A stretch of DNA of 64,000 nt from Patescibacteria group bacterium. Lineage in GTDB: Bacteria > Patescibacteriota > WWE3 > UBA101185 > UBA10185. Below, one piece after another: positions 9,337-31,344 of the stretch. A model generated the notes under the pieces. That model did no database searches. It saw only the letters and a list, made by a program, of their open reading frames with translations, and was not told the DNA's origin. Each line of letters begins with the position of its first letter. Position 1 is the stretch's first letter. Location: assembly GCA_049322215.1 (NCBI GenBank), contig JBMORU010000001.1, positions 900,023-964,022 on the forward strand, in the 5' to 3' direction. The position numbers were made by a program, and so were the translations under genes.

Positions 9337-10239
9337 ATGGAAATACCACCCAACCTTAAAACACTTTATAAACACTGGAATAAGCACACAGCCCAAACAT
9401 TACCTAAAACCAACCTTAAACTACCCACAGAACTAACATGGTTTATGGCAGAACGCATGAAAATTTGGGCTAAAAAAAACGCGGGCTTAAACCCACCTTA
9501 TACAGCTGACAAAACTCTACAAACATATAAATTTTGCAATATATACAGAGAACTAGACAGACAAACAATAGAAATACATAGCCATTTAAAAAATTTGCAA
9601 AGTGATTTTTCCCTTTGGTTGCTAAATATCGCATTTCACAGATTTGTGTGCAACCCAAATACAGTTAAAAACGTAGGTCTTTTGAATTATGACTCGCAAA
9701 ATAATAGGGAAGTATATGAAAAGTTACTTAACTTACCTAAACCTAAATATGGTGTTCCTTATGTTTTTCCTATAAGCGTAATTCAAAAATCAAGCTATGA
9801 AACACGCGAAAAGTTTTTTTGCCACTATTTACCTAAGAGAATTCCCACAGTAGCTAAAACAGTACAAAACTTTAATAACACAACTGTTAACAGTGCATTA
9901 GCGCAAATATTGCCTGCGTTTGGTTTCAACTTTAAATTCCACTGGACTGAAATATTAATCGATATCGCTTATCAGTTTCCTAATTTGATTAACTTATATG
10001 AAGATTTTTATATAGGCCCAGGAGCGATTCCTACAGCTAAATTAATTAACCCAAATCAAAATCCAAAAATACTTATAAATATCTGTATAGGAACTAAACC
10101 GGAGAATTTTCCATATTTAACTTTTAACAGCAACCCGGTTTTACTATCTGCAGAAAACTGGGAAGGAATATTTTGCGAATATAGAAAATATACAAACCTA
10201 AAAAAAGGGCAGGGAAGAGTTAGAAGATTTAATCCCTAA
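9337..10239 (+). CDS. Hypothetical protein (300 aa)
   Basis: ORF track. No recognised motif. Confidence 0.35.
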   Translation: MEIPPNLKTLYKHWNKHTAQTLPKTNLKLPTELTWFMAERMKIWAKKNAGLNPPYTADKTLQTYKFCNIYRELDRQTIEIHSHLKNLQSDFSLWLLNIAFHRFVCNPNTVKNVGLLNYDSQNNREVYEKLLNLPKPKYGVPYVFPISVIQKSSYETREKFFCHYLPKRIPTVAKTVQNFNNTTVNSALAQILPAFGFNFKFHWTEILIDIAYQFPNLINLYEDFYIGPGAIPTAKLINPNQNPKILINICIGTKPENFPYLTFNSNPVLLSAENWEGIFCEYRKYTNLKKGQGRVRRFNP

Positions 10240-10257: not shown

Positions 10258-12531
10258 TTATAACTTAGTAGACTTTAACCTTAATGCATTCATAACAACC
10301 GATATGCTTGAAAATGCCATGGCACCACTAGCTAACATTGGGTTTAATAATATGCCTAAAATAGGGTATAAAGCCCCCATAGCAACAGGAATTAAAATAA
10401 TATTGTACCCAAACGCCCAACCTAGATTTTGTTTTATATTCCTCATAGTTGCTTTAGAAAGTTTAATAGCTTTTGGTACCAAAGAAATATCTCCTCGCAA
10501 TAGTGTTATGCCCGCCGATTCTATTGCTACATCAGTACCACTTCCCATGGCAACGCCTATGTCTGCAGTAGCCAAGGCAGGGGCATCGTTAATGCCATCG
10601 CCAACCATAGCAACCACACTTTTTGTATTTCGTGTTTGCAATTCTTTAACCTTTGCAGCCTTATCTTCAGGGAAAACCTCTGCGAATACTTCATCAATAC
10701 CTAACTCTTTAGCTATTGCTTCTGCTGTTACTTTATTATCTCCAGTTATCATTACTGACGTAATTCCCATATCTTTAAGCACTTGAATTGTTTCCTTGGA
10801 AGATTTTTTAATTGAATCTGAAATACCAAGAAGCGCTACATTTTTTTTATCTACACTTACAAAAGAAACTGTTTGTGCTTTCTTACGAAGGCCTTCTGAT
10901 AAATTTGTTAAATCAGCACACTTCATTACCCCCTGTTGATCCATTAGTTTTTGTGTGCCTATTAGTACTTCATGACCATTTACATAAGCTTTTACACCAA
11001 GGCCAGACATGTCTTCAAAGCGTTCCGCCTCATAAACTTTATTGTTCTTTAAGTGGTTTACAACAGCTTCTGCTAAAGGATGATGTGATTTCTTTTCAAT
11101 TGAAAGAATTAACGAAGATATGTAAGCTTTTATATCAATCTCTTCAGGAATTTCCCAATTCAAACTACTTACAACCTCCTCAAGATTATTCATAAACGCA
11201 AATGTCTGCACCTCGGGTTCACCTTTTGTTAAAGTTCCTGTTTTATCGAAAACTACATAATTCACTTTATTTGCTACTTCCAAGCTCTCAGCATTTTTTA
11301 TCAATATACCGTTTTGAGCACCCTTACCAGTACCCACCATAATAGAGGTAGGGGTAGCAAGTCCTAAAGCGCAGGGACACGCAATAATTAATACGGCAAT
11401 AAGGTTAACCAAAGCTAAAATAAACGAAGGTTGAGGTCCAAAATTAAACCATATTAAGAACGTAACAATTGCAAGCATTAAAACTACAGGAACAAAATAA
11501 GAAGATACTGTATCTGCCAACTTTTGTATTGGTGCGCGAGATCCTTGCGCCTGTTTTACCATTTCGATTATTTGAGATAGCATTGTTTCGCTCCCAACTT
11601 TTGTTGCTTTCATTTCAAAAGAGCCACTTTTATTTATAGTCGCACCTATAACTGTATTTTCTACTACTTTTCTAACCGGCATACTTTCGCCAGTAACCAT
11701 GCTTTCATCTACAGCGGATTCTCCTTTAGTTATTACACCATCTACAGGAATTTTTTCTCCAGGTTTAACAATTAATATATCTCCAACAACGATTTGGTCT
11801 ACGGGAATTTCTAGCTCTTCCCCATCTCTTAATACTCGTGCTGTTTTAGCCTGCAAGCCAAGTAGTTTTTTAATTGCTTCCGAGGTTTGCCCTTTTGCCC
11901 TCATTTCCAAAAACTTACCAAGCAAAATCAAGGTAATAATAGTTGCGGAAGTTTCAAAATATACATGTGGTTCTATTCCAAAGTTTAAAAGTTGTGTCTC
12001 AAACAAAACCACAATTACAGAATAAAAATAGGCGACAGAAGTACCAATTGCAATCAAGGTATCCATGTTTGCTGTACGATTTTTAAGACCAGACCATGTA
12101 CTTTTGTAATACTGAGCTCCTACCCAAAATTGCACGGGTGTAGATAAAATCCACATTATCCAATAGTTTTTTAATATAGCAGGAGCAAATGGAATCATTG
12201 CACCAAAAAGCAAGAAGAATGTAAAAAAGCTACTCCAAACAAGTTTTGTTTTTACCTCCTTTACTTCTTTTGCCTTTTCTTTTTCGACTAAATCTTCTTG
12301 AGATTCGTTTTCCTGTCCAATTACTGCTTTGTAGCCCACATCCTCAACTGCTTTTGCAAAATCTTCTGTTTTGCAACTATCCTCATGCTCTACAGTTGCT
12401 TGTTCATTTGCATAATTCACGTGGGCAGATTTAACTCCGGGCAAATTTTCTAGACTCCTGCCAACATTTATTGCACAACTTGCACAATGCATACCTGAAA
12501 CATGAAATGTTGTTTTTTTAATATTACTCAT
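10258..12531 (-). CDS. copA: Copper-translocating P1B-type ATPase
   Basis: An N-terminal HMA domain carries GMHCASCA. The TM metal site CPC ([10 protein letters not shown]) is present. The phosphorylation motif DKTGTLT and the hinge GDGINDAP are present. The start is set at MSNIKK, which has an AGGAG RBS and an ATGA overlap with the upstream gene. Confidence 0.9.
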
Positions 12532-12899
12532 AAATCTGCTCCTGACTCTACAACCTTTATTTTTCCGTGAAACATGTTCATTCCACATGAAATTTCATAT
12601 TCTCCAACTTCTGCAGGGTTAATTACGATATTAGTAGTTTTGTTTAGTCCCAAGTGCTCTCTAATATTAAAATCTGGAATTACAACTTCGTCTAAACAAG
12701 AACTTGCATCTTTTCTATAAAATTTTAAGGTTACTGGCTTACCTTTTTTGACTTTGATTACATTTGGTTTATAGCCACCTTCTACAGTAATAGTTATCTC
12801 GTTTGTAACTTCTACGGCTTTGCTTTCTTTTTTCATAAAAAAGAACCAGTAAGTAAAAATTATTAATAGTATTCCTAATAAATTAATTAGTATTGTCAT
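12528..12899 (-). CDS. Cupredoxin-like small copper-binding protein (membrane-anchored)
   Basis: 123 aa with an N-terminal TM. The C-terminal motif [16 protein letters not shown] carries Cys/His/Met ligands, as in cupredoxin-fold domains. Its stop overlaps the copA start. Confidence 0.5.
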
Positions 12900-13034
12900 G
12901 TTTTATTTCCTTAATAACTTTCTTTAAGAGGACACACTCCTAATATTGCAAAATTGTTATAGTTCATATTAAGTTTAGCTTTTATAATCGGTTTTGTCGT
13001 TTTTGAAATACTGTAGTTATTCATAAATTTCAAC

Positions 13035-13472
13035 TTATAGTGCCCACTCGAATTTAAGAACTTCACCTTCTATTTCAGTTATAGTGAGAAAAATTGTCGT
13101 TGCTTGTGGATTCATTGTAGAAAATTGAAGTTCTCCACTTAAGTGATGTCCTCCGCGATCACCACTCCAAGACACCGGTTGATATTCATTTCCCTCATTG
13201 TCCGTTAAAGTAATTATTTTCTTCAGGTCAAAATCTAATTCTACAGAATGAGTATTGAGAGTAATCTCAAAATTGGAAGTACTTAGTGGGGTAACTTGAA
13301 CGTTTACAGCACCCATTGTTCCACTTTTAGAATCAAGAGGGTTTGTGTCAGATACGGATGTTGTAGGTTTTTCTGCTTTTGGGTTTGAAATAAATACCCA
13401 ACCTAAAAACACTAATAGTAATATTGTTATTGGAATAATAAACTTTTCAAATTTTTTCATAATTAGCTCCAT
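13035..13472 (-). CDS. Secreted hypothetical protein in the copper operon
   Basis: 145 aa with an N-terminal TM or signal. Predicted beta-rich. A GGHH motif is present. Confidence 0.35.
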   Translation of the reverse strand: MELIMKKFEKFIIPITILLLVFLGWVFISNPKAEKPTTSVSDTNPLDSKSGTMGAVNVQVTPLSTSNFEITLNTHSVELDFDLKKIITLTDNEGNEYQPVSWSGDRGGHHLSGELQFSTMNPQATTIFLTITEIEGEVLKFEWAL

Positions 13473-13944
13473 ATAAGTGTTTGAGCATAAAACCTATCCC
13501 AAACAAATTAAAAACTATACCCACAGCAAAAAGTTCTTTTGTGTAAGCTCCTAAAAAAGATGCGAGCGCAGAGGCACCTAAGATAGGTAAAACATCTACT
13601 GCATGATGCGCACAACAAGCAACCATTGTTGCAGTACTGGTGGCACCGGTAACTTTAGATACTTTATTAGTTTGCATTGTTTCCATGTGTTTAATTTGCA
13701 ATAACTTAGATAATGCAAGCTGCATTCCGAAACCTAAAGAAAGTGCCAATATCCAAGGACGGTAATAATTAAACTGAGAAATTGCAGTTTCCATACTACC
13801 TGTAGTGATTCGCATTAAAATGAGATATATGGCAAGTAAAAAGGTAGTTCCAAATACAAAATATGTAATTAGTTTAAAGAGCTTATTAGTGTTTTCCACA
13901 ACAATCTCCATTTTCTTCTTTGTTTTCCAACTCTTTAGTTTCAA
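13447..13944 (-). CDS. Small polytopic membrane protein with a CC..HH motif
   Basis: The segment TATMVACCAHHAVDV lies in a TM or loop region. The gene overlaps both neighbours. Confidence 0.35.
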   Translation of the reverse strand: MKLKSWKTKKKMEIVVENTNKLFKLITYFVFGTTFLLAIYLILMRITTGSMETAISQFNYYRPWILALSLGFGMQLALSKLLQIKHMETMQTNKVSKVTGATSTATMVACCAHHAVDVLPILGASALASFLGAYTKELFAVGIVFNLFGIGFMLKHLYGANYEKI

Positions 13945-14812
13945 CCTCTACTGTAGTATTTGTATCTCTTGTAGATAGAGCATGTTTAATAATTACAGTC
14001 AAAAATAAAACAATAGCCACAAGAAATATTGCATTAGCACCGGGAACAGAATTTAGCTTTAGTGCTAAACTATTTATATTCTCAGAAAAGCCCTGCGCCA
14101 TTTCTGCCATCGAAAAATCGGTTGCAAGGGCTAAATACACAATTACAAATCCCATTATTGTAAAAATGAAAAACGATATTACATTTCCCATTATTATTGG
14201 ATAGGTTTTAGAAAGTATTTTTATTTCACTCAATTTTCTCTTAAAAAACTTCATACCTAAAACTTTTTTCGTATCTAAAAAGTATGCGCCTATATACAGG
14301 GGAGTAACCATTCCCAAAACATACACAAAACCTATAAGCAATGCTTGCCACAAACTAGGGGACATAATGCTAAGGGTCAAAACTCCAACCAGTACAGGGG
14401 CACAACATGCGCTAGTTATACCTGAGAAAACACCTAAAGTGAAAATAGAAACAACATCCGTACCTTGTTTGCCCGACTGGTTAATATGTGGCATTGGAAG
14501 TTTAAGTCCTAATAAAGAGGCCAATCCAACCAGAATCATAAAAGTACCACCAAGCAAATAAATTTGTTCATGATACCTAAAAACTGCAAGAGAAATTAGT
14601 TTTGAGCCCAAAACTGCAGGAATCATTACAACAAATATGCCTAAGGAATAAACTAGCGTCATGAGTAAAACTCTTTTTCGCTCCTTAAAGACTGAGCCTA
14701 AATATGCAGGAAGCAAATACGACACACAGCATGGGGCAAATAAGGCTACCATTCCTGCCAAAAACGCTGCAATTATTGACGTTTGAAAAAGTATTGCTTC
14801 ATTCATAATCAA
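13886..14812 (-). CDS. CcdA/DsbD-like transmembrane thiol-disulfide or metal transfer protein
   Basis: Polytopic. Paired cysteines sit in TM segments at FAPCCVSYLLPAYLG and TSACCAPVLVG, reminiscent of the DsbD/CcdA SPCxxP core. The C-terminus ends in the tail GDCCGKH. Confidence 0.4.
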   Translation of the reverse strand: MIMNEAILFQTSIIAAFLAGMVALFAPCCVSYLLPAYLGSVFKERKRVLLMTLVYSLGIFVVMIPAVLGSKLISLAVFRYHEQIYLLGGTFMILVGLASLLGLKLPMPHINQSGKQGTDVVSIFTLGVFSGITSACCAPVLVGVLTLSIMSPSLWQALLIGFVYVLGMVTPLYIGAYFLDTKKVLGMKFFKRKLSEIKILSKTYPIIMGNVISFFIFTIMGFVIVYLALATDFSMAEMAQGFSENINSLALKLNSVPGANAIFLVAIVLFLTVIIKHALSTRDTNTTVEVETKELENKEENGDCCGKH

Positions 14813-15828
14813 ACTCCGCAGCCGCCACCACCACCTGAACCTTGTACTGGTTTAACCTTTGCAAGCACTGATCTATATCCTGAACCGCTAGAAAACTCTG
14901 CACCTAAAACTTCTTTAGCTACTACAGCAGCCCATTCAAGGTTTCTTTCATCTTCCATATACTTTGCAATTGTTAAGTACGTATCGGGAAACCAAATAGA
15001 ATTTACCGCAAGAGCACTGTTGTAAATTTCATCTTCGGAGTACCCTTTAGCAACCATCATTTCTATTAGACCAAGCATAGCCATACCATGATTACAGTCT
15101 GCAAATGCCGTATGATTATTACAACAAGGTCTATATATGTTTGATGCTATTTGCTTAATCAAAACTTGTTGTTCGGGAGATAAATTAAACAAATTATGTT
15201 TACCATAGTGATCCATTGCACTACCTTGAGCTAAATTCCAACCTCCTGTAGCTGCAAGATTTTCCACTTGAGGATATTCTGAACGCATATCTTCTAGAAC
15301 TAAACTTTGTTGAGCCAAACCCAATGCCCATAGAGCATTTAACACAAATCTTGAATTCTCCCTAGTTAAAACAATGGCTTCATCGTAATTAGTTGTCAAA
15401 ATCTTAGTGTAGTCCGCATTTGCTTTGCTTAAAGGGCCACCTCTAAATAAACTTAAAAATTTTTGCTGGTCTATTACGCCTACGCTAACTAGCTTTGTAC
15501 CAACATCACCCCACTTAACAGGTAACACCACACCCCCCTCGGGAAGTACTGCAACCTCTAGCCTTTGTGCTTGTTTTTCTGGTGTATTTTCTAACTCCTC
15601 ATTTAATTTTTCCTTATAGGCAATAAGCGCATTTACTTGAGATCTATAAAAGTAATATTGAATAATCGCAACACCTAGTGTGGAGTTAAATGTTATTAAT
15701 AAAACAAGAGACATGGGGACACTCTTTTTCAAAAAGCTTTTCATTGAGGTGTTAAAACGTCTAGGCTTTGAAAAGTCACCGGAGTTCGAAGTTTCTAGTA
15801 CTTTTTCTTTCATAAAACTATCTTTCAA
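14809..15828 (-). CDS. Membrane-anchored Cys-containing hypothetical protein with a Gly-Cys C-terminal tail
   Basis: 339 aa. It contains RPCCNNHTAFADCNHG. The C-terminus reads GSGGGGGCGV. An ATGA overlap joins it to the downstream gene. Confidence 0.35.
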   Translation of the reverse strand: MKDSFMKEKVLETSNSGDFSKPRRFNTSMKSFLKKSVPMSLVLLITFNSTLGVAIIQYYFYRSQVNALIAYKEKLNEELENTPEKQAQRLEVAVLPEGGVVLPVKWGDVGTKLVSVGVIDQQKFLSLFRGGPLSKANADYTKILTTNYDEAIVLTRENSRFVLNALWALGLAQQSLVLEDMRSEYPQVENLAATGGWNLAQGSAMDHYGKHNLFNLSPEQQVLIKQIASNIYRPCCNNHTAFADCNHGMAMLGLIEMMVAKGYSEDEIYNSALAVNSIWFPDTYLTIAKYMEDERNLEWAAVVAKEVLGAEFSSGSGYRSVLAKVKPVQGSGGGGGCGV

Positions 15829-15829
15829 A

Positions 15830-16342
15830 TTAATCTACTTCTTTGCTAACTACGTTTCCTGTGAGCCTAAACTCAACCGTACGATTACTTGGATCATTGG
15901 TATCAAATGAAACTAAACGAGTAATTGGCCCGGTGCCTTGAGGTCCATGAAACAGGGGATCAAATACAACCTTTACTTCGGCAGTGGAATCTGGCGCTAA
16001 TGTGCCTTTCCAACTAGATGTAGCATGCATACCAAAAGCAGGACTTTGTACTCCAGCAATAGTTACTTGAGCTTCTGTACACATACAAGAGGTCTTGAAA
16101 TTCGATATATCAAGGTTTGAAGTACCAGCATTCTTAATTAGAAAAGTCTTTTCTACATTGCCGCCCTCAATGTCTATTTCACCCCAATCGTGCAACTTGG
16201 CACCTAACACCTCAACTTTTGCGTCCCCACTGCTTTCTAAAACCGGAGGCTGTGTTTTAGTTGCAAAAATAGTGCCTAAAATTAATATAAAAACTGTAGA
16301 AATACCTATTAAGCTTATTAAGATTTTGTTTTCCTTAGTCAT
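15830..16342 (-). CDS. DUF1573-like secreted or membrane-anchored protein (paralog A)
   Basis: HDWGEI...KTFLIKNAGTSNLDISNFKTSCMCTEAQV fits the DUF1573 pattern of a beta-sandwich with a CxC motif. A second conserved block reads FDPLFHGPQGTG. Confidence 0.5.
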   Translation of the reverse strand: MTKENKILISLIGISTVFILILGTIFATKTQPPVLESSGDAKVEVLGAKLHDWGEIDIEGGNVEKTFLIKNAGTSNLDISNFKTSCMCTEAQVTIAGVQSPAFGMHATSSWKGTLAPDSTAEVKVVFDPLFHGPQGTGPITRLVSFDTNDPSNRTVEFRLTGNVVSKEVD

Positions 16343-16359
16343 TTAGCAAACCTTTCTAC

Positions 16360-16848
16360 TCAATCTAAAATTTTTACATAAATATCAAATTGCATTTCTG
16401 GTGAATTAGCATCATTAGTTTTCACAAATACCGAACGTGTTAGCTCACCTTGAGGTTCTTCATGAAAGTTTGGATCAAAATAAACTGTTAGTTGAGCCTT
16501 TTCATTAAACCCGAGTATTGTTTTATCTACTTCTGCAGACGTACACCCACAAGATGTAGAAATATCACCAATCTCTAGTTGTTCTTTACCGTGGTTTTCA
16601 ATTTCAAAAGTGGTACTAACAACACCGTCATTTCTAGATATAGAACCAAAATCATGCGTATTATTATGTGTTTCTGCTAAGGGTTTATTGTAATTAATTT
16701 CACTGTGATGAACTCCCATCATTCCTACACCCATATAGTTATTAAACCTGTTTATGCCTAGTAAATAAGATAGAGTGGCAACATTCATTAAAACTAGAAT
16801 TGCAATTACTCCATAAAGTACTTTTTTCTCCGTCATATCCGTTTGCAT
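16360..16848 (-). CDS. DUF1573-like secreted or membrane-anchored protein (paralog B)
   Basis: HDFGSISRNDGVVSTTFEIENHGKEQLEIGDISTSCGCTSAEV, with a second block YFDPNFHEEPQGE. It is clearly paralogous to 15830..16342. Confidence 0.5.
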   Translation of the reverse strand: MQTDMTEKKVLYGVIAILVLMNVATLSYLLGINRFNNYMGVGMMGVHHSEINYNKPLAETHNNTHDFGSISRNDGVVSTTFEIENHGKEQLEIGDISTSCGCTSAEVDKTILGFNEKAQLTVYFDPNFHEEPQGELTRSVFVKTNDANSPEMQFDIYVKILD

Positions 16849-17115
16849 TTAATTCTTTCTATAAAGAGAATAAATTTTCACTAATTCATCTATAGCTTTA
16901 TCTTCTTCACCATTTTTCATTTGTTCGACCACACAACCGTTTATATGCTCTTCTAAAATTTGTTTGTCTATCTTTTGTAATGATTTTTGAATGGATAAAG
17001 ACTGGGTAAGTACATCTACACAGTATTTACCTTCTTCTATCATTTTTGAGAGACCCTCAATTTGACCAGCAATGATTTTTAATTTGTGTGAAGTTGATTT
17101 TCTATCGTATTCCAT
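16849..17115 (-). CDS. csoR: CsoR/RcnR-family metal-sensing transcriptional repressor
   Basis: 88 aa. IAGQIEGLSKMIEEGKYCVDVLTQ...EEHINGCVV carries the conserved Cys-His-Cys metal ligands of the CsoR family. It is the first gene of the operon. Confidence 0.8.
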   Translation of the reverse strand: MEYDRKSTSHKLKIIAGQIEGLSKMIEEGKYCVDVLTQSLSIQKSLQKIDKQILEEHINGCVVEQMKNGEEDKAIDELVKIYSLYRKN

Positions 17116-17121
17116 GTGATG

Positions 17122-17146
17122 AATACTACTCCCCCCTATTGGTATT
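17122..17146. promoter_or_regulatory. Candidate CsoR operator in the divergent promoter region
   Basis: AATACTACTCCCCCCTATTGGTATT has ATAC/GTAT arms flanking a C6 tract. It resembles B. subtilis CsoR operators of the form TACCC..GGGGGTA. It lies between csoR and the divergent HMA gene. Confidence 0.4.
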
Positions 17147-17228
17147 AGTCAAGTTCCTTAACAAAACAACGTTATCAAAATGCGAATTGAACTATATAAT
17201 TATTAAACTAACAAGTTAAAATTTAAAA

Positions 17229-18602
17229 ATGCAAAAAAAGGATAAAAAGAGCAATAAAACAAAAAAAAGATATTTTGTACAAGGCATGCACTGCAGTACC
17301 TGTGAAATACTTATTAAACAAGATATTGCAAATCTTCAGGGTATAAATAAAGCCACTGTTTCTTTAAGTAAGTCACATGTAGTTATTCATGCTAATGAAA
17401 CAACTAACATTCCTTCAAGAAACACTTTAAATAAGTTATTTAAAGAATTAGGTTACACTTTTCACGAACAAAAGCCCAAAGAACAAAAACTTAGTAGGGA
17501 AGAGTCTTTAAAAATTATAGGAATAGCACTACTATTTATCATCGCTTTTTACACACTAGAAAAATCCGGAATATTTATGAAATATTCTATAACTGCTCAA
17601 TCATCCTTAGGAGCATACTTTGTTTTTGGATTAGCTGCCGGAATTTCAAGCTGCGCAGCACTTGTTGGGGGGATTTTACTGTCACTTTCGAAAAACTGGA
17701 ATAATATGTATGCAAACAATAAAAGAAAGAGTGTTCTACCTTTTATTTACTTTAACTCATCAAGAATACTAACCTTTGCGCTACTTGGAGGAATATTAGG
17801 GTACCTTGGAAGCTTTTTACAATTATCTATAACATTAACCTCAATTTTAACTTTACTTATTGCATTACTAATGCTGGCATTAGGATTTCAAATGATTGGG
17901 ATTAAGTGGTTTAATAAGTTTAGTTTTAACTTTGTTGGAAACAATAAATACCTAAACAAAAACTCAGAACTAAACGGCAAATACATACCCTTAATAGTAG
18001 GCGCCTTAACTTTTTTTGTTCCATGTGGATTTACCTTAATTGCTCAAACTAACACATTAAATGCAGGTAGCTTTTACAAGGGTATGCTTCAATTAACTGC
18101 GTTTGCACTAGGAACCCTACCAATATTGGCATTGATTAGTTTTTCGAGTGTTAAATTTTACTCAAACCCGAAGTTTGCAAAAAAATTTAGTTTGTTCTCA
18201 GGCGTAATCATAGTGTTTTTTGCACTTTACACAATAAACTCACAGCTAAATGTATTAGGTTTAACAAGCCTTAACGATATTTCTTTTTCAAAAAGCGTAA
18301 CTAGCAAAAGCGACATACAAATAAATAATGCTAATTACCAGGTAATACAACTTGAAGCTATTGGGTTTGAATATTATCCAAAAGAAGTAACAATTCAGTC
18401 GGGAGTGAAAACGCAGTGGTCGATATACGATAATGGGTCAGTGGGTTGTGCTAAAGCAGTATATGCTAGGGGACTATACCCAGATGTCATTTACTTAAAA
18501 CCTGGCATGAACACTGTTGAATTTGTTGCGCCCAAACCAGGTACATATAAAATTTCTTGTTCAATGGGAATGGTACCTCCAGTAACTGTTAGGGTTATAT
18601 AG
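17229..18602 (+). CDS. HMA-domain / polytopic membrane / C-terminal cupredoxin-like fusion protein
   Basis: The N-terminal region reads GMHCSTCEILIK, a CxxC HMA domain. The middle has about 8 TM helices with TM cysteines at SSC and VPCGF. The C-terminus reads YKISCSMGMVPPVTV, homologous to the C-terminus of 12528..12899. Confidence 0.55.
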   Translation: MQKKDKKSNKTKKRYFVQGMHCSTCEILIKQDIANLQGINKATVSLSKSHVVIHANETTNIPSRNTLNKLFKELGYTFHEQKPKEQKLSREESLKIIGIALLFIIAFYTLEKSGIFMKYSITAQSSLGAYFVFGLAAGISSCAALVGGILLSLSKNWNNMYANNKRKSVLPFIYFNSSRILTFALLGGILGYLGSFLQLSITLTSILTLLIALLMLALGFQMIGIKWFNKFSFNFVGNNKYLNKNSELNGKYIPLIVGALTFFVPCGFTLIAQTNTLNAGSFYKGMLQLTAFALGTLPILALISFSSVKFYSNPKFAKKFSLFSGVIIVFFALYTINSQLNVLGLTSLNDISFSKSVTSKSDIQINNANYQVIQLEAIGFEYYPKEVTIQSGVKTQWSIYDNGSVGCAKAVYARGLYPDVIYLKPGMNTVEFVAPKPGTYKISCSMGMVPPVTVRVI

Positions 18603-27660: not shown

Positions 27661-28749
27661 TTATTCATCTACACAAAGCAGTAAATCGTAGAATACAGAC
27701 TCGTTCGTGGGAGTTTGATTTGCATAAGTTGCTTTTACACTGATTTCATAAACTTTATTTGCGTTATATACGCGTGTCGTTTCCCAAGGAGCATTGGGTA
27801 TCAAAAACCAACCTTCTCCAGGGTTTAAACCACTATCAGGGTATATTCCTAATGTTTCATCAGCAGCCTCTTCAGTGGGACCCTCCATAATTACTGTAAA
27901 GCTTTCATGCTGTTGCGGAGGAACACCGCAGCTACCACCATCTGGGCATTGGTAACAAAGTGGGCCATCGGGACATTGTTCAGGATGCCCCTCGCCTGCG
28001 TAGCCTACAATATAAAGTCTGGAAGGTTCATCAAAAACTATTTCATAGGTATCGGTTGCAACCCCTTTAGTCACTACTAAGTCAGTTAAGCGTGTTAGTT
28101 CTTTTGTTCCAGAAGGACATGCAAGCACAGGGGGATCCCAAGCTTCACATAAACCACAATCACTAGAACACGAACTACAAGACTCACTTGCAGAACAATC
28201 TCCATCTCCACACACTGGGGCACAAGTACCACAATCTGCAGAACAGGTAGAGCAACTTTCACTACCATTGCAGTCTCCATCACCACAAATTGGAAGTGAT
28301 GTGCTTCCTCCCGAACATGAGTTTTCTATAGCAGCACAGCTTTCTTCATGCTCGAAAACTTCATTATCAATTGAACAAAAGCTTAAGCATCCCACGTCGA
28401 AACGAGTTGCATCGATAGCGTAACCATCTGGGGATCCAGCAACATAGCGATATGAATATAGGGCGCCTTCTGGGGTTCCATTTGGCCAATTAGATATTTG
28501 TGTGGCAACACCAGCTTCATCCATAATATTATCGTCACTATTTGTATCTTTCGGGTAATAACCCTCAATAATTCTAAAGTTATGTAAACCTTCTTCGAGT
28601 TTTTTTAAATTAGTTCTAACTACTGAATTTTTTGTGGCATCAACCTGACCCCGTCTGTTTATTACATTTACAACAACACCAGAAAGCGCAGCAATCATTG
28701 CCACTACAATTAAAACTTCAATTAAAGTAAATCCTTTTTTGTTAGTCAT
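27661..28749 (-). CDS. Type IV pilin-like protein with 2 tandem Cys-rich 24-aa modules
   Basis: The N-terminus MTNKKG|FTLIEVLIVVAMIAALSGVV is a class III prepilin signal with Glu+5. The middle carries 2x CGDGDCxxSESCSxCSxDCGxC. The C-terminal domain is shared with the next gene. Confidence 0.65.
   Translation of the reverse strand: MTNKKGFTLIEVLIVVAMIAALSGVVVNVINRRGQVDATKNSVVRTNLKKLEEGLHNFRIIEGYYPKDTNSDDNIMDEAGVATQISNWPNGTPEGALYSYRYVAGSPDGYAIDATRFDVGCLSFCSIDNEVFEHEESCAAIENSCSGGSTSLPICGDGDCNGSESCSTCSADCGTCAPVCGDGDCSASESCSSCSSDCGLCEAWDPPVLACPSGTKELTRLTDLVVTKGVATDTYEIVFDEPSRLYIVGYAGEGHPEQCPDGPLCYQCPDGGSCGVPPQQHESFTVIMEGPTEEAADETLGIYPDSGLNPGEGWFLIPNAPWETTRVYNANKVYEISVKATYANQTPTNESVFYDLLLCVDE
28144..28287 (-). 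repeat. Two in-frame 72-bp tandem repeats encoding Cys-rich modules
   Basis: Same module as 29213..29572, here in two copies. Confidence 0.65.
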
Positions 28750-30058
28750 CTATACAAAATAATAAAGTATATCGCACCGATTCGTTAATAGCCGTGGCAT
28801 CTGCATATGTAGCACGAACTCTAACTTCATAGGCTTGCCCAACAGCGTAAGTACTAGAAGTAACCCACGGTAATCCTGCTAACATGTACCAACCATCGTC
28901 AGGGTTTAAACCACTATCGGGGTAAATACCCAATTGTTCAGGCAGTGGTGGGCCAACGGTACGTGCTACTTCAACAATAAAACTCTCATGTTCTTGTGCT
29001 TGGCCACATAATGGCCCACTAGGACAATCTTCTGGGTGGCCTTCTCCAGCATAACCATACATATAAATTTTAGAAGGTTTGTCTAGGTTAATTAAGTATG
29101 TATCCATTGTTGCACCACTGCTACTCCAAGTAACTACGGAGTCATTCATATAAGCTATATCATGCTGACCAGCAGGACATGCAAGACTTGGGGGTGTTAT
29201 TATTCCGCAGCTTGAACAATCTGCTGAACAAGTGTTGCACCATTCATTGGCAGAACAAATCCCATCACCACAAGAGGGCGCACATACACCACAGTCCGAA
29301 GAACAACTAGAACAGGACTCACCAACATTACAGATACCATCGCCACATGTGGGACCACAAGCACCACAATCAAGTGAGCATGAGGCACAAGTTTCACCAT
29401 CGCTGCAAATACCGTTTCCACAAGTTGGTGGACAGGCACCACAGTCTATTGAACAACTACTACAAGTTTCACCCCCATTACAGCTTCCATCACCACAAGA
29501 TGCTGCACACGCACCACAATCGGTTGCACAAGTTGAACAGCTCTCACCACCGTTACAGCTTCCATCACCGCAGGTAGGTGGTGGGGGAGGGGGAGGACCT
29601 GATGTAGCACCTGTACATGAGTTAACAATAGATGAGCAATCAACTTCATTTTCAAAAATTGAATTGTCTATAGAACAATAACTCAAGCAGCCGGTATCAA
29701 ACCGGGTTGCATCTAATACATAACCTTCTTGGGGAGAGTCTATATATGTGTAGGTATAAGTAGCACCTTCTGGAGTTTCATCGGGCCAATTTAAAATGTA
29801 AGTGCCCACACCAGATTCATCCATTATGCTGTTATTACTATTTGCATCTTGTGGATAATATCCTTCGGAGATTTTAAAATTTCCAATTCCATCAACAAGT
29901 TTTTCTAAATTTACTCTAACAACAGAATTTTTTGCAGTATTAATGTTTCTTTCGCGATTAATTGTAACTATTGCTACACCAGTAACCACACCCAAAAGGG
30001 CAATAACGATAAGGAGTTCAATAAGTGTAAAACCAAAATTTCTGTACACTTTTCTCAT
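28742..30058 (-). CDS. Type IV pilin-like protein with 5 tandem Cys-rich 24-aa modules (paralog)
   Basis: The start is reassigned to MRKVYRNFG|FTLIELLIVIALLGVV. A poly-Pro (P7) tract precedes 5x CGDGxCxxxExCxxCxxDCGxC. Its N- and C-terminal domains are about 55-60% identical to those of 27661..28749. It overlaps the downstream pilin gene by 8 nt. Confidence 0.65.
   Translation of the reverse strand: MRKVYRNFGFTLIELLIVIALLGVVTGVAIVTINRERNINTAKNSVVRVNLEKLVDGIGNFKISEGYYPQDANSNNSIMDESGVGTYILNWPDETPEGATYTYTYIDSPQEGYVLDATRFDTGCLSYCSIDNSIFENEVDCSSIVNSCTGATSGPPPPPPPTCGDGSCNGGESCSTCATDCGACAASCGDGSCNGGETCSSCSIDCGACPPTCGNGICSDGETCASCSLDCGACGPTCGDGICNVGESCSSCSSDCGVCAPSCGDGICSANEWCNTCSADCSSCGIITPPSLACPAGQHDIAYMNDSVVTWSSSGATMDTYLINLDKPSKIYMYGYAGEGHPEDCPSGPLCGQAQEHESFIVEVARTVGPPLPEQLGIYPDSGLNPDDGWYMLAGLPWVTSSTYAVGQAYEVRVRATYADATAINESVRYTLLFCIDD
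29213..29572 (-). repeat. Five in-frame 72-bp tandem repeats encoding the Cys-rich modules
   Basis: The periodic TGC/TGT pattern is visible on the DNA. It generates long shadow ORFs in several frames (track ORFs 29200..29681). A G-rich tract GGTGGGGGAGGGGGAGG lies just 5' in the coding sense. Confidence 0.7.
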
Positions 30059-30126
30059 ATATATATAGGATACATAAAGAAAAGCGCTAGGAAAAGCATT
30101 ATTTTTACAGCATAATATATACAGTA

Positions 30127-31344
30127 ATGGATAAGTACTATTCAAAGATATCTCGAATACTTTTAATTATTATTATACTTGGATTAGCTTATACTCTTGG
30201 AAAATGGGCGATTCAAATAAAAACAAATTCAAACACTATAAGAAAACAAGACAAAATTAAAGCACCTGTATCAGTAAAAAATGAACAACCAGAAAAAAAA
30301 CCTTCCTTTAATGACACAATTGAAGTTTACAGAAAACAAAAAGAACAAGAAATAGCTCTTGTTGAATCTAGTGTTTACAGTTTGCCAAACATAATAAGGT
30401 GGAATGACTATTTAATTTACGAAAATAAAGACAAAAACGTAATACTTGAAAATACAAATAATTTCGAAGAAAAAGTACTAATAGCAAAGGACTTTCTTGA
30501 AAATATAGATACAAATGGTAAGGGTATAAATCTTGCAGTATCGGCATATATTAGTGATTTTAAAATTATAGATGATGTACTGTACGTTTCTTATGGAGGA
30601 TATCTTATTGAAGGTGCCATATTTTGGATAGATTTATATAATATAAAAGAGCCACAAATCCTTAGAAGAGGTCCCAACCCACACATAGTGAAATTTGGTA
30701 AAGACTATTGGGTTAGAGAAGGTGAAGGTGACGCGTGTTGGGGATTTGCGCGATTTACACCCGTGAATTTAAATGAAAAAAGTTTAGGTTCAACACTAGA
30801 AGTTACCAGTGGTTGCACAGAAGGGGAATACTTACTGGGCTGGGATACAAAAACAGAGGCATTTATAACCACAAACTACACACGAGAAGATCCTTACTTT
30901 GGGTCAACTACGTATTTAGCATTAAACAAACTTGAATCTGATGGCACAAGAACAACCTTAATAAACATAGACTCCAACTTAGGGGCAAAAATAAAAGACG
31001 TTATTTTATCAAAAACTGAGAGTAAGGTTTACTTGTCCGATGCACAGTCATTGTATATGTACAACATTCCAACTAGTCAATTAAGTAAAATAGGTGATTA
31101 CGAAGACAAAGCTAAAGAACTGCAATTTATAAAAGTGTTAGAAGAAGGCGGTATATGTGTAAGAACAAATGATACAGCTCCTAATAAGCTTATAGATCAC
31201 ACAACGGCAAAATTTATACCGGATACAACTAAAAGATGCAACGACGGTGAAAATCTTTACGGCAAAGACAGATACGTTAAAGAAAATGTAGACTTTCTGC
31301 AAATATTAAGTGATTTGGAAAATTATAATTACAGAATAAAATAA
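30127..31344 (+). CDS. Membrane-anchored extracytoplasmic hypothetical protein
   Basis: 405 aa with an N-terminal TM. It is divergent from the pilin pair. Confidence 0.4.
   Translation: MDKYYSKISRILLIIIILGLAYTLGKWAIQIKTNSNTIRKQDKIKAPVSVKNEQPEKKPSFNDTIEVYRKQKEQEIALVESSVYSLPNIIRWNDYLIYENKDKNVILENTNNFEEKVLIAKDFLENIDTNGKGINLAVSAYISDFKIIDDVLYVSYGGYLIEGAIFWIDLYNIKEPQILRRGPNPHIVKFGKDYWVREGEGDACWGFARFTPVNLNEKSLGSTLEVTSGCTEGEYLLGWDTKTEAFITTNYTREDPYFGSTTYLALNKLESDGTRTTLINIDSNLGAKIKDVILSKTESKVYLSDAQSLYMYNIPTSQLSKIGDYEDKAKELQFIKVLEEGGICVRTNDTAPNKLIDHTTAKFIPDTTKRCNDGENLYGKDRYVKENVDFLQILSDLENYNYRIK

Follow-up and report, generated by a model that had tools for sequence, protein, structure and literature searches.

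CupA is a characterized membrane-anchored Cu(I) chaperone that feeds CopA, and in the copY-cupA-copA operon of Streptococcus pneumoniae this tethered cupredoxin is encoded directly upstream of, and coupled to, a Cu(I) P1B ATPase. A second described arrangement, the csoR-copZ-copA operon of Firmicutes and actinobacteria, combines a CsoR repressor harboring a Cys-His-Cys triad, a CopA exporter, and a G-tract pseudopalindromic operator that overlaps the promoter. The Scs system, which is induced by Cu, couples a DsbD-like reductase to thiol oxidoreductases that bind Cu(I) (PMC10907172). Here we analyze a copper-linked gene cluster from a Patescibacteria group bacterium of the WWE3 lineage, which lies in a 64,000-nucleotide (nt) stretch of contig JBMORU010000001.1 (assembly GCA_049322215.1, positions 900,023 to 964,022 of the forward strand; hereafter the window). 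As read from its genes and their relatives, the region is a real copper-defence cluster, conserved across ultra-small Patescibacteria, in which the known proteins CsoR, CupA, and CopA are joined to six uncharacterized Cys/His membrane and surface proteins (Table 1). Copper-stress operons that include an envelope thiol component are a known kind of system; the new parts are the lineage-restricted fold of g4, a doubled-Cys CcdA with metal tails (g5), the pairing of a CC-HH membrane protein with a His-site protein (g6 and g7), and a CupA outside streptococci. Searches of the literature on DUF1573 and copper, Patescibacteria CsoR/CopA, cupredoxins of the candidate phyla radiation (CPR), CcdA/CsoR, and YcnL retrieved no description of this cluster.

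Table 1. Features of the copper cluster and of two further loci in the window, with the junction of each operon gene to the next gene downstream (TM, transmembrane)
Feature	Coordinates	Strand	Description	Junction to next gene
Promoter-like site	17123..17152	-	TTGACT-18-TAGTAT; spacer G-tract element ATACCAATAGGGGGGAGTAGTAT; candidate CsoR operator	
csoR	16849..17115	-	88 aa; predicted Cu(I)-sensing CsoR-family repressor; PF02583	0 nt, abutting (TAA then ATG)
DUF1573-A	16360..16848	-	162 aa; single-pass anchored Ig-like protein, SCGCT motif; PF07610	17 nt
DUF1573-B	15830..16342	-	170 aa; paralog, SCMCT motif; PF07610	16 nt with ATG 15813; 1 nt with TTG 15828
g4	14809..15828	-	Likely start ATG 15813 (334 aa; 339 aa from TTG 15828); N-terminal anchor and ~260-aa ectodomain	2 nt with ATG 14806; TTGA overlap with TTG 14812
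g5	13886..14812	-	Likely start ATG 14806 (306 aa); CcdA family; PCC 25-27, CCAP 134-137; GDCCGKH tail	26-nt overlap
g6	13447..13911	-	154 aa; 4-helix membrane protein; GFGxQ in TM2, MVACCAHHxxDVLP in TM3	14-nt overlap
g7	13035..13460	-	141 aa; membrane-anchored beta-rich ectodomain	135-nt gap, 12900-13034
cupA	12528..12899	-	123 aa; membrane-tethered cupredoxin-fold Cu(I) chaperone; translationally coupled to copA	ATGA overlap
copA	10258..12531	-	757 aa; P1B-1 Cu(I)-exporting ATPase; one N-terminal HMA domain	
Divergent gene	17229..18602	+	457 aa; HMA, DsbD_2 membrane domain, and C-terminal cupredoxin-like domain with C...CSMGM	
Gene convergent with copA 3' end	9337..10239	+	300 aa; PF18723	
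Prepilin-like locus	27661..30145	-	Two large proteins with prepilin N-methylation motif PF07963	

The predicted CsoR, CupA, and CopA axis

Profile searches leave a CsoR/CupA/CopA axis of Cu(I) sensing, chaperoning, and efflux well supported as a prediction. An initial annotation, made from the DNA letters, had placed a CsoR-family repressor at the head of the operon and a canonical P1B CopA at its tail, and both calls hold. CsoR matches PF02583 (Trns_repr_metal) with 83.4 bits (cutoff 22.8, E 1.5e-23), and its closest NCBIfam model is RicR; CopA matches TIGR01511 with 640.3 bits (cutoff 397), is composed of HMA (E 1.8e-16), E1-E2_ATPase, and Hydrolase domains, and shows the motifs GMHCASC, CPC, DKTGT, GYN, and MAFSS in its translation. 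CsoR carries the Cu(I) ligand triad Cys32/His57/Cys61. Among 41 relatives drawn from module-linked loci (L004-L086), the second-shell residues Tyr31 and Glu77 are found in 41 and 40, respectively, and position 61, a Cys in the window protein, is Cys in 16 and His in 25. Many Patescibacteria CsoRs would accordingly have a Cys-His-His ligand set rather than Cys-His-Cys.

The protein encoded immediately upstream of copA matches PF13473 (E 5e-25) and aligns with S. pneumoniae CupA (PDB 2MRY/4F2E; E 8.8e-21, residues 33-115) and with the N-terminal cupredoxin domain of pneumococcal CopA (4F2F; E 4.6e-13). Its cluster ligands, Cys68, Cys105, Met107, and Met109, are invariant (16/16), and the Cys/Cys/Met/Met set of the pneumococcal chaperone is kept. 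The initial annotation had listed this cupredoxin as an uncharacterized envelope component; it is instead a homolog of CupA, a CopZ-replacing Cu(I) chaperone, and its domain is expected to face the cytoplasm, because nothing basic precedes the N-terminal TM helix and KK-x-x-K (KKESK) follows it. The broader claim that the middle genes of the operon lack an assigned function fails for this protein and generally stands for the others in Pfam, NCBIfam, and PDB searches. The likeness to S. pneumoniae extends to the gene order and the coupling of cupA to copA; in contrast, the repressor is CsoR here and CopY there, and six extra genes are present here. Furthermore, the CopA of the window lacks the matching cupredoxin N-domain expected of a CupA partner and harbors a ferredoxin-like HMA N-domain instead, with a cupredoxin-type acceptor domain found on the divergent DsbD_2 protein. 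According to a 2020 review, CupA is found in only a few streptococci (PMC7558416); that it occurs in Patescibacteria, alongside a CopA of the HMA type, is by itself modestly novel. In a 2017 study, "putative cupredoxins" of CPR genomes were proposed as electron donors to NirK (PMC5581439), and some of these assignments may need re-examination, since CupA-type chaperones of the Cupredoxin_1 family occur in Patescibacteria.

The divergent HMA-DsbD_2-cupredoxin gene, which is conserved with the cluster, was overlooked in the initial annotation, whose gene list is incomplete to this extent. PF00403 and PF13386 score above threshold in its product and Cupredoxin_1 below threshold, and the C-terminal domain aligns with CupA over the C..CxMxM ligands (E 1e-4). 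The gene occupies the same position in WWE3, and elsewhere in Patescibacteria it corresponds to an adjacent DsbD_2 gene and cupredoxin gene. Both soluble domains of the protein should be cytoplasmic; CupA may pair with its cupredoxin domain, and its HMA domain may pair with that of CopA.

The window operon shares with csoR-copZ-copA operons the Cys-His-Cys CsoR, the CopA exporter, and, in relatives, a G-tract pseudopalindromic operator that overlaps the promoter; it differs from them in lacking CopZ, in the added two DUF1573 proteins, g4, the CcdA-like protein, g6, g7, and CupA, and in the degenerate operator of the window genome itself. In most of 36 relatives, an ATACCCC-N2-4-GGGGTAT palindrome lies between TTGAC(A/T) and the -10 element, a few bases 5' of the csoR ATG, and CsoR autoregulation is well supported by sequence at the level of the family. 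In the window genome CsoR is likewise presumed to be autoregulated, with the G-tract element of the promoter-like site as candidate operator. A promoter scan places the end of the -10 of this site ~7 nt before the csoR ATG, so the csoR mRNA would be leaderless or nearly so.

Conservation of the cluster across Patescibacteria

The full ten-gene order, including the divergent HMA-DsbD_2 gene, recurs in WWE3 at a g4 identity of only 50%, and the modules stay clustered, in reshuffled order, across many Patescibacteria classes; the arrangement is therefore not a matter of chance. In Kaiserbacteria, Taylorbacteria, and Magasanikbacteria, g4 is found with csoR, copA, DUF1573, and CcdA-type genes in other orders. 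We counted partners within 8 kb of g4, using iterated profiles, in 36 species loci with at least 6 kb on each side of g4: g5 is present in 32 of the 36 loci, copA in 31, DUF1573 in 25, csoR in 21, g6 and g7 in 12 each, a DsbD_2 protein in 8, and cupA in 6, and the commonest order is DUF1573-g5-g4. Synteny with csoR and copA in related genomes, the lack of which the initial annotation had named as a ground for refuting its proposal, is thus strong in WWE3, in other classes, and in these counts.

More distant g5 loci include DUF1573 genes, a ~315-aa Pfam-less protein (its gene lies between DUF1573 genes and was not compared with g4), rhodanese-DUF1573 proteins, and g5 beside an HMBD-ATPase, with either CsoR or an ArsR-YHS protein as the neighboring regulator. 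Rhodanese-DUF1573 fusions are encoded directly upstream of the g5 homologs in L088, L089, and L090, and a two-component system is encoded beside the L089 module and beside the g6-g7/DUF1573 locus L088. Taken together, the shuffled gene order, the regulators that differ between loci, and the Rosetta-stone fusions speak for a functional link to copper rather than for inherited synteny alone. Two side observations concern related loci: an extracytoplasmic rhodanese recurs in copper clusters, and small SHOCT-domain proteins (PF09851) adjoin csoR, copA, or g4 in L004, L005, and L087, with none in the window operon.

The CcdA-like protein g5

The initial annotation described g5 as a CcdA/DsbD-like membrane protein with paired TM cysteines, and a family profile bears this out, matching Thermus thermophilus CcdA (PDB 5VKV) with an E value of 2.7e-9. 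Judged by this alignment, g5 truly belongs among the relatives of CcdA. Searched singly, the window protein gives no Pfam match and weak NCBIfam matches to DsbD/TsoB, some relatives carry PF02683, and the PGAP name for an identical protein is "CcdA family." Cys26, which follows a Pro in TM1, and Cys134 in TM4 align with the catalytic Cys of CcdA, and each is followed by a second invariant Cys, such that a vicinal pair is present at both sites; none of the four Cys varies among the members compared (26-28 of 26-28). Read by hand, g5 would consist of a six-helix CcdA core and a seventh TM helix that brings the tail back to the cytoplasm, in keeping with the strongly basic loops that follow TM1 and TM5. 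Among 120 listed relatives, 24 tails bear a CC motif, frequently in one to three copies within acidic stretches of low complexity, and 4 bear an HMBD domain (PF19335); HMBD also heads the neighboring Cu-ATPases. A few relatives have DsbA-, TlpA-, or Redoxin-like neighbors.

The lineage-restricted protein g4

Both the fold of g4 and its Pfam-less family have been seen to date in Patescibacteria alone. Neither the single sequence nor a 44-member profile matches Pfam, NCBIfam, or the PDB, and a confident AlphaFold2 model (pLDDT 87) returned only noise and no convincing structural relative when searched against the PDB with Foldseek. The family comprises more than 3381 clusters and occurs in at least 587 species-level genomes, nearly all of named Patescibacteria lineages; a few g4-bearing genomes are unclassified or are evidently mislabeled contigs of metagenome-assembled genomes (MAGs). 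Four such contigs (L026, L060, L071, and L075) are labeled "uncultured Gammaproteobacteria" or "Brocadiaceae" and are probably mis-binned Patescibacteria.

The invariant features of g4 are the N-terminal anchor, the motif RPCCxNxxxFxDCNHGMA, and a flexible Gly-rich C-terminus ending in GGCGV (the GGGGCGV tail), with a Cys within the last six residues in 120 of 120 members. Five g4 homologs (P0034, P0043, P0059, P0092, and P0106) begin with a cytoplasmic M[SP]SCC[GD][NQ]H motif, which resembles the DCCGKH tail of g5. The presence of a similar Cys motif on either g4 or g5 hints at a g4-g5 complex.

Some g4 members are called CcmH/NrfF by JGI pipelines. Sequence comparisons do not support this assignment: none of the 44 members matches PF03918 at E up to 1, and an hhalign comparison with CcmH does pick out the Cys-motif region, with a score of 13.8 that is equalled by 46 of 200 shuffled sequences. 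A likeness of g4 to CcmH is unproven. The CcdA/DsbD-CcmG-CcmH branch of cytochrome c maturation resembles the cluster in that g5 is a CcdA homolog and that g4 homologs bear these labels; it differs in that CcmH harbors LRCxxC where g4 harbors RPCC...DC with no Pfam CcmH match, and in that the cluster encodes no cytochrome c machinery or substrates.

The two DUF1573 proteins and the g6-g7 pair

Both DUF1573 paralogs proposed in the initial annotation match PF07610 (cutoff 26.1), DUF1573-A with 69.0 bits (E 3.6e-19) and DUF1573-B with 43.3 bits (E 3.7e-11), and they share 35% identity (E 1e-15); a search for PDB relatives of DUF1573-A found none. The family of related loci keeps TSCxCT and DPxxHxxPxG in 51-52 of 52 members. 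A selenoprotein form of DUF1573 with a UGC motif exists (PMC9312934), from which we infer that the Cys pair is chemically reactive.

g6 has no Pfam family and generic structural matches only; its GFGxQ and MVACCAHHxxDVLP motifs are invariant in the family, and one relative is fused to an HMA domain. The family of g7 has 1397 representatives when clustered at 50% identity, and in it His71, Asp78, Trp98, GGHH (103-106), and Trp139 are invariant; g7 scores below threshold against DUF5643 (26.6 bits, cutoff 34), as do its relatives, and a search for PDB relatives found none. The two proteins form a pair, for which natural g6::g7 fusions exist (P0369, P0398, P0407, P0410, and P0413). Further natural fusions join g7 to rhodanese and DUF1573 (P0408) and to a plastocyanin-type blue-copper domain (P0452). 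Beyond Patescibacteria, g6-g7 is found in L088, a MAG locus of unstated taxonomy where its neighbors are DUF1573 proteins, a multicopper oxidase, and an ATPase, and in the Chloroflexi MAG locus L087, adjoining a DUF1573 protein and a two-component system.

Operon layout and neighboring loci

The nine minus-strand open reading frames reported between positions 10258 and 17146 are present, and the PCCNNH, GSGGGGGCGV, GDCCGKH, ACCAHH, and GGHH motifs ascribed to their products are all found in the translations. For the junctions we relied on the DNA itself and on the starts that an independent gene-calling program had assigned in L001, a public contig nearly identical to this one. The initial annotation had claimed two ATGA overlaps; that between cupA and copA is a true one, so CopA starts at 12531 rather than at the open reading frame start at 12588, and the one between g4 and g5 is replaced by the alternatives in Table 1. 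Its description otherwise stands, with longer overlaps, short spacings, and a single 135-nt gap, which is 3 nt in WWE3 and thus is not conserved. Given the tight packing, and with no convincing internal promoter or terminator in a consensus scan of the minus strand of the cluster, the single transcript proposed earlier is probable, and the nine genes are likely expressed as one unit.

The GC content of the operon is the same as that of its flanks, and most of the window ranges from 0.32 to 0.38. Two other loci stand apart. The product of the gene convergent with the 3' end of copA matches the 5-hmdU DNA kinase helical domain (PF18723, E 5.5e-20), a family that stems from phage thymidine-hypermodification systems; it is odd to meet it singly in the chromosome of a Patescibacteria member. 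The prepilin-like locus coincides with the only GC-rich stretch of the window (0.42-0.44 versus 0.32-0.38 elsewhere) and may be type IV pilus-like or horizontally acquired.

Proposed mechanism and alternatives

The "complete envelope copper-handling relay" of the initial annotation is a reasonable hypothesis, in which the relay itself, its direction, and its carrier, electrons or Cu(I), are all conjectural. We put at about even the chance that the cluster, by analogy, would combine CsoR-controlled CupA-to-CopA efflux with a CcdA-fed extracytoplasmic thiol/Cu(I) module, as an analogue of Scs. In the first layer, which is well supported, CsoR would sit on an operator that overlaps the promoter and would be released upon binding Cu(I); CupA would pick up Cu(I) at the inner membrane face and pass it to the P1B-1 ATPase CopA, which would pump it out. 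In parallel, g5 would move reducing power from the cytoplasm across the single membrane to anchored non-thioredoxin ectoproteins, that is, the two CxC Ig-like DUF1573 proteins and g4, with the Gly-rich C-terminal Cys arm of g4 shuttling between the membrane Cys of g5 and the PCC/DC center of g4. Along with g7, the His-site protein, and g6, its partner in the membrane, the thiols so reduced would capture exported or incoming Cu(I), and the module would keep surface thiols in, or restore them to, the reduced state. By manual positive-inside readings of the sequences, the DUF1573, g4, and g7 domains would lie on the outer face of the membrane, whereas the domain of CupA and the tail of g5 would be cytoplasmic. 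g5 would span the membrane with its reactive Cys within the bilayer, and the Gly-rich Cys arm of g4 seems suited to reach a CcdA-type cavity.

The Salmonella ScsABCD (suppressor of copper sensitivity) operon is similarly copper-linked, and in it a membrane reductase of the DsbD superfamily is joined by Cys-motif proteins, membrane-linked or extracytoplasmic, that also bind Cu(I) (PMC10907172). This likeness is functional only, with no homology found beyond the DsbD superfamily: the partners here are Ig-like DUF1573 proteins and g4 rather than counterparts of the thioredoxin-fold ScsC/ScsD, of which Pfam and NCBIfam searches found none, a minimal doubled-Cys CcdA takes the place of ScsB, the host has a single membrane, and regulation is by CsoR.

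Several points weigh against a CcdA-fed thiol module under CsoR control. Known CcdA substrates are thioredoxin-like, and Pfam and NCBIfam searches found no thioredoxin-fold gene in the operon. The extra Cys of g5 and the CC or HMBD tails of its relatives are needless for pure electron transfer and point toward metal binding. The membrane topologies rest on hand inference, and co-transcription across the gap between g7 and cupA, although likely, remains a prediction. Finally, the CsoR site of the window is degenerate, with no canonical CsoR box within 3 mismatches and no inverted repeat around the promoter; the case for an operator in this genome is therefore made from its position and from the relatives.

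The first two of these points lend some weight to the leading alternative, a Cu(I)-thiolate conduit, which we consider unlikely and in which g5, and perhaps g6 and the divergent DsbD_2 protein, would move Cu(I) rather than electrons. Cytoplasmic CC or HMBD tails would load Cu(I), and the four membrane Cys would pass it on by alternating access, as MerT does with Hg(II), to receivers outside, namely the Cys arm of g4 and the CxC-His sites of the DUF1573 proteins, providing a second, ATP-independent path of export or sequestration. MerT/MerC/MerF and MerP resemble the cluster in their vicinal TM Cys pairs, cytoplasmic-tail Cys pairs, and HMA-type partner domains, all of them typical of relays that hand on a soft metal by exchange of thiolate ligands; the differences are the absence of any detected sequence homology, the lack of MerR, MerA, and MerB, and a context of Cu(I) rather than Hg(II). 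Beyond the invariant vicinal pairs at both catalytic sites of g5, the tails of its relatives, and the lack of a thioredoxin-fold partner, a conduit is favored by the MSSCCGNH-like motif on the cytoplasmic N-terminus of five g4 homologs, by the HMA-fused g6 relative, by the two cytoplasmic Cu(I)-type domains that flank the DsbD_2 protein, and by the placement of the DsbD family in the LysE superfamily, which includes heavy-metal exporters (PMC4608589). Set against this, g5 retains everything that a functional CcdA needs and aligns with CcdA, a metal-binding tail could equally be regulatory, and export is already supplied by CopA. Moreover, we know of no CcdA or DsbD protein that transports metal. 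That an ATP-independent Cu(I) export and sequestration relay, running from a CcdA-fold protein turned from electron carrier into Cu(I) conduit, with interchangeable CC-repeat or HMBD loading tails, to the swinging g4 arm and the CxC proteins, is ancestral and near-universal in Patescibacteria we regard as unlikely.

It is quite improbable that the module instead acquires copper or loads extracytoplasmic cuproproteins of the NirK or blue-copper type, by analogy with CopC/CopD, YcnI/YcnJ, Sco, or PCuAC. The pairing of a membrane protein (g6) with a His-rich beta ectodomain (g7) does resemble the logic of CopD/CopC, P0452 joins g7 to a plastocyanin-like domain, the g6-g7 genes of L088 adjoin a multicopper oxidase, and some CPR genomes encode NirK and cupredoxins (PMC5581439). 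Linkage to CsoR, CupA, and an exporting CopA is, however, the arrangement of a response to excess copper; no cuproenzyme gene lies near the operon in the window, and a multicopper oxidase beside an ATPase is itself a detoxification pairing. Least probable of all is a different trigger or substrate, either persulfide or another thiol-reactive species sensed in a CstR-like manner, with the Cys proteins and associated rhodaneses managing sulfane sulfur, or Ag, Hg, or Cd: the CsoR family includes persulfide sensors and a sulfur-oxidation regulator (PMC8643695 and PMC10318464), rhodanese-DUF1573 fusions adjoin g5 in relatives, and most of the regulators compared have His rather than Cys at position 61, but the window CsoR harbors Tyr31 and Glu77 along with the Cys-His-Cys triad for Cu(I), CopA passes the Cu-ATPase cutoff and its motifs are of the Cu(I) type, CupA chaperones Cu(I), and Pfam and NCBIfam searches found no sulfur-oxidation or mer genes.

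Implications for Patescibacteria

A large part of bacterial diversity belongs to Patescibacteria, and hundreds of their species keep this multi-gene copper-linked module even though their genomes are tiny. The module is probably important for living on or near host cells and in metal-bearing groundwater. The cluster extends the CupA chaperone paradigm far beyond streptococci and offers a first functional handle on g4, on the g6/g7 pair, and on the copper-linked DUF1573 families. It also raises the question of whether a doubled-Cys CcdA scaffold can carry Cu(I) instead of electrons; should the module be no more than a thiol shield fed by reductant, it would represent a counterpart of Scs that is of the Gram-positive type and does without thioredoxin folds.

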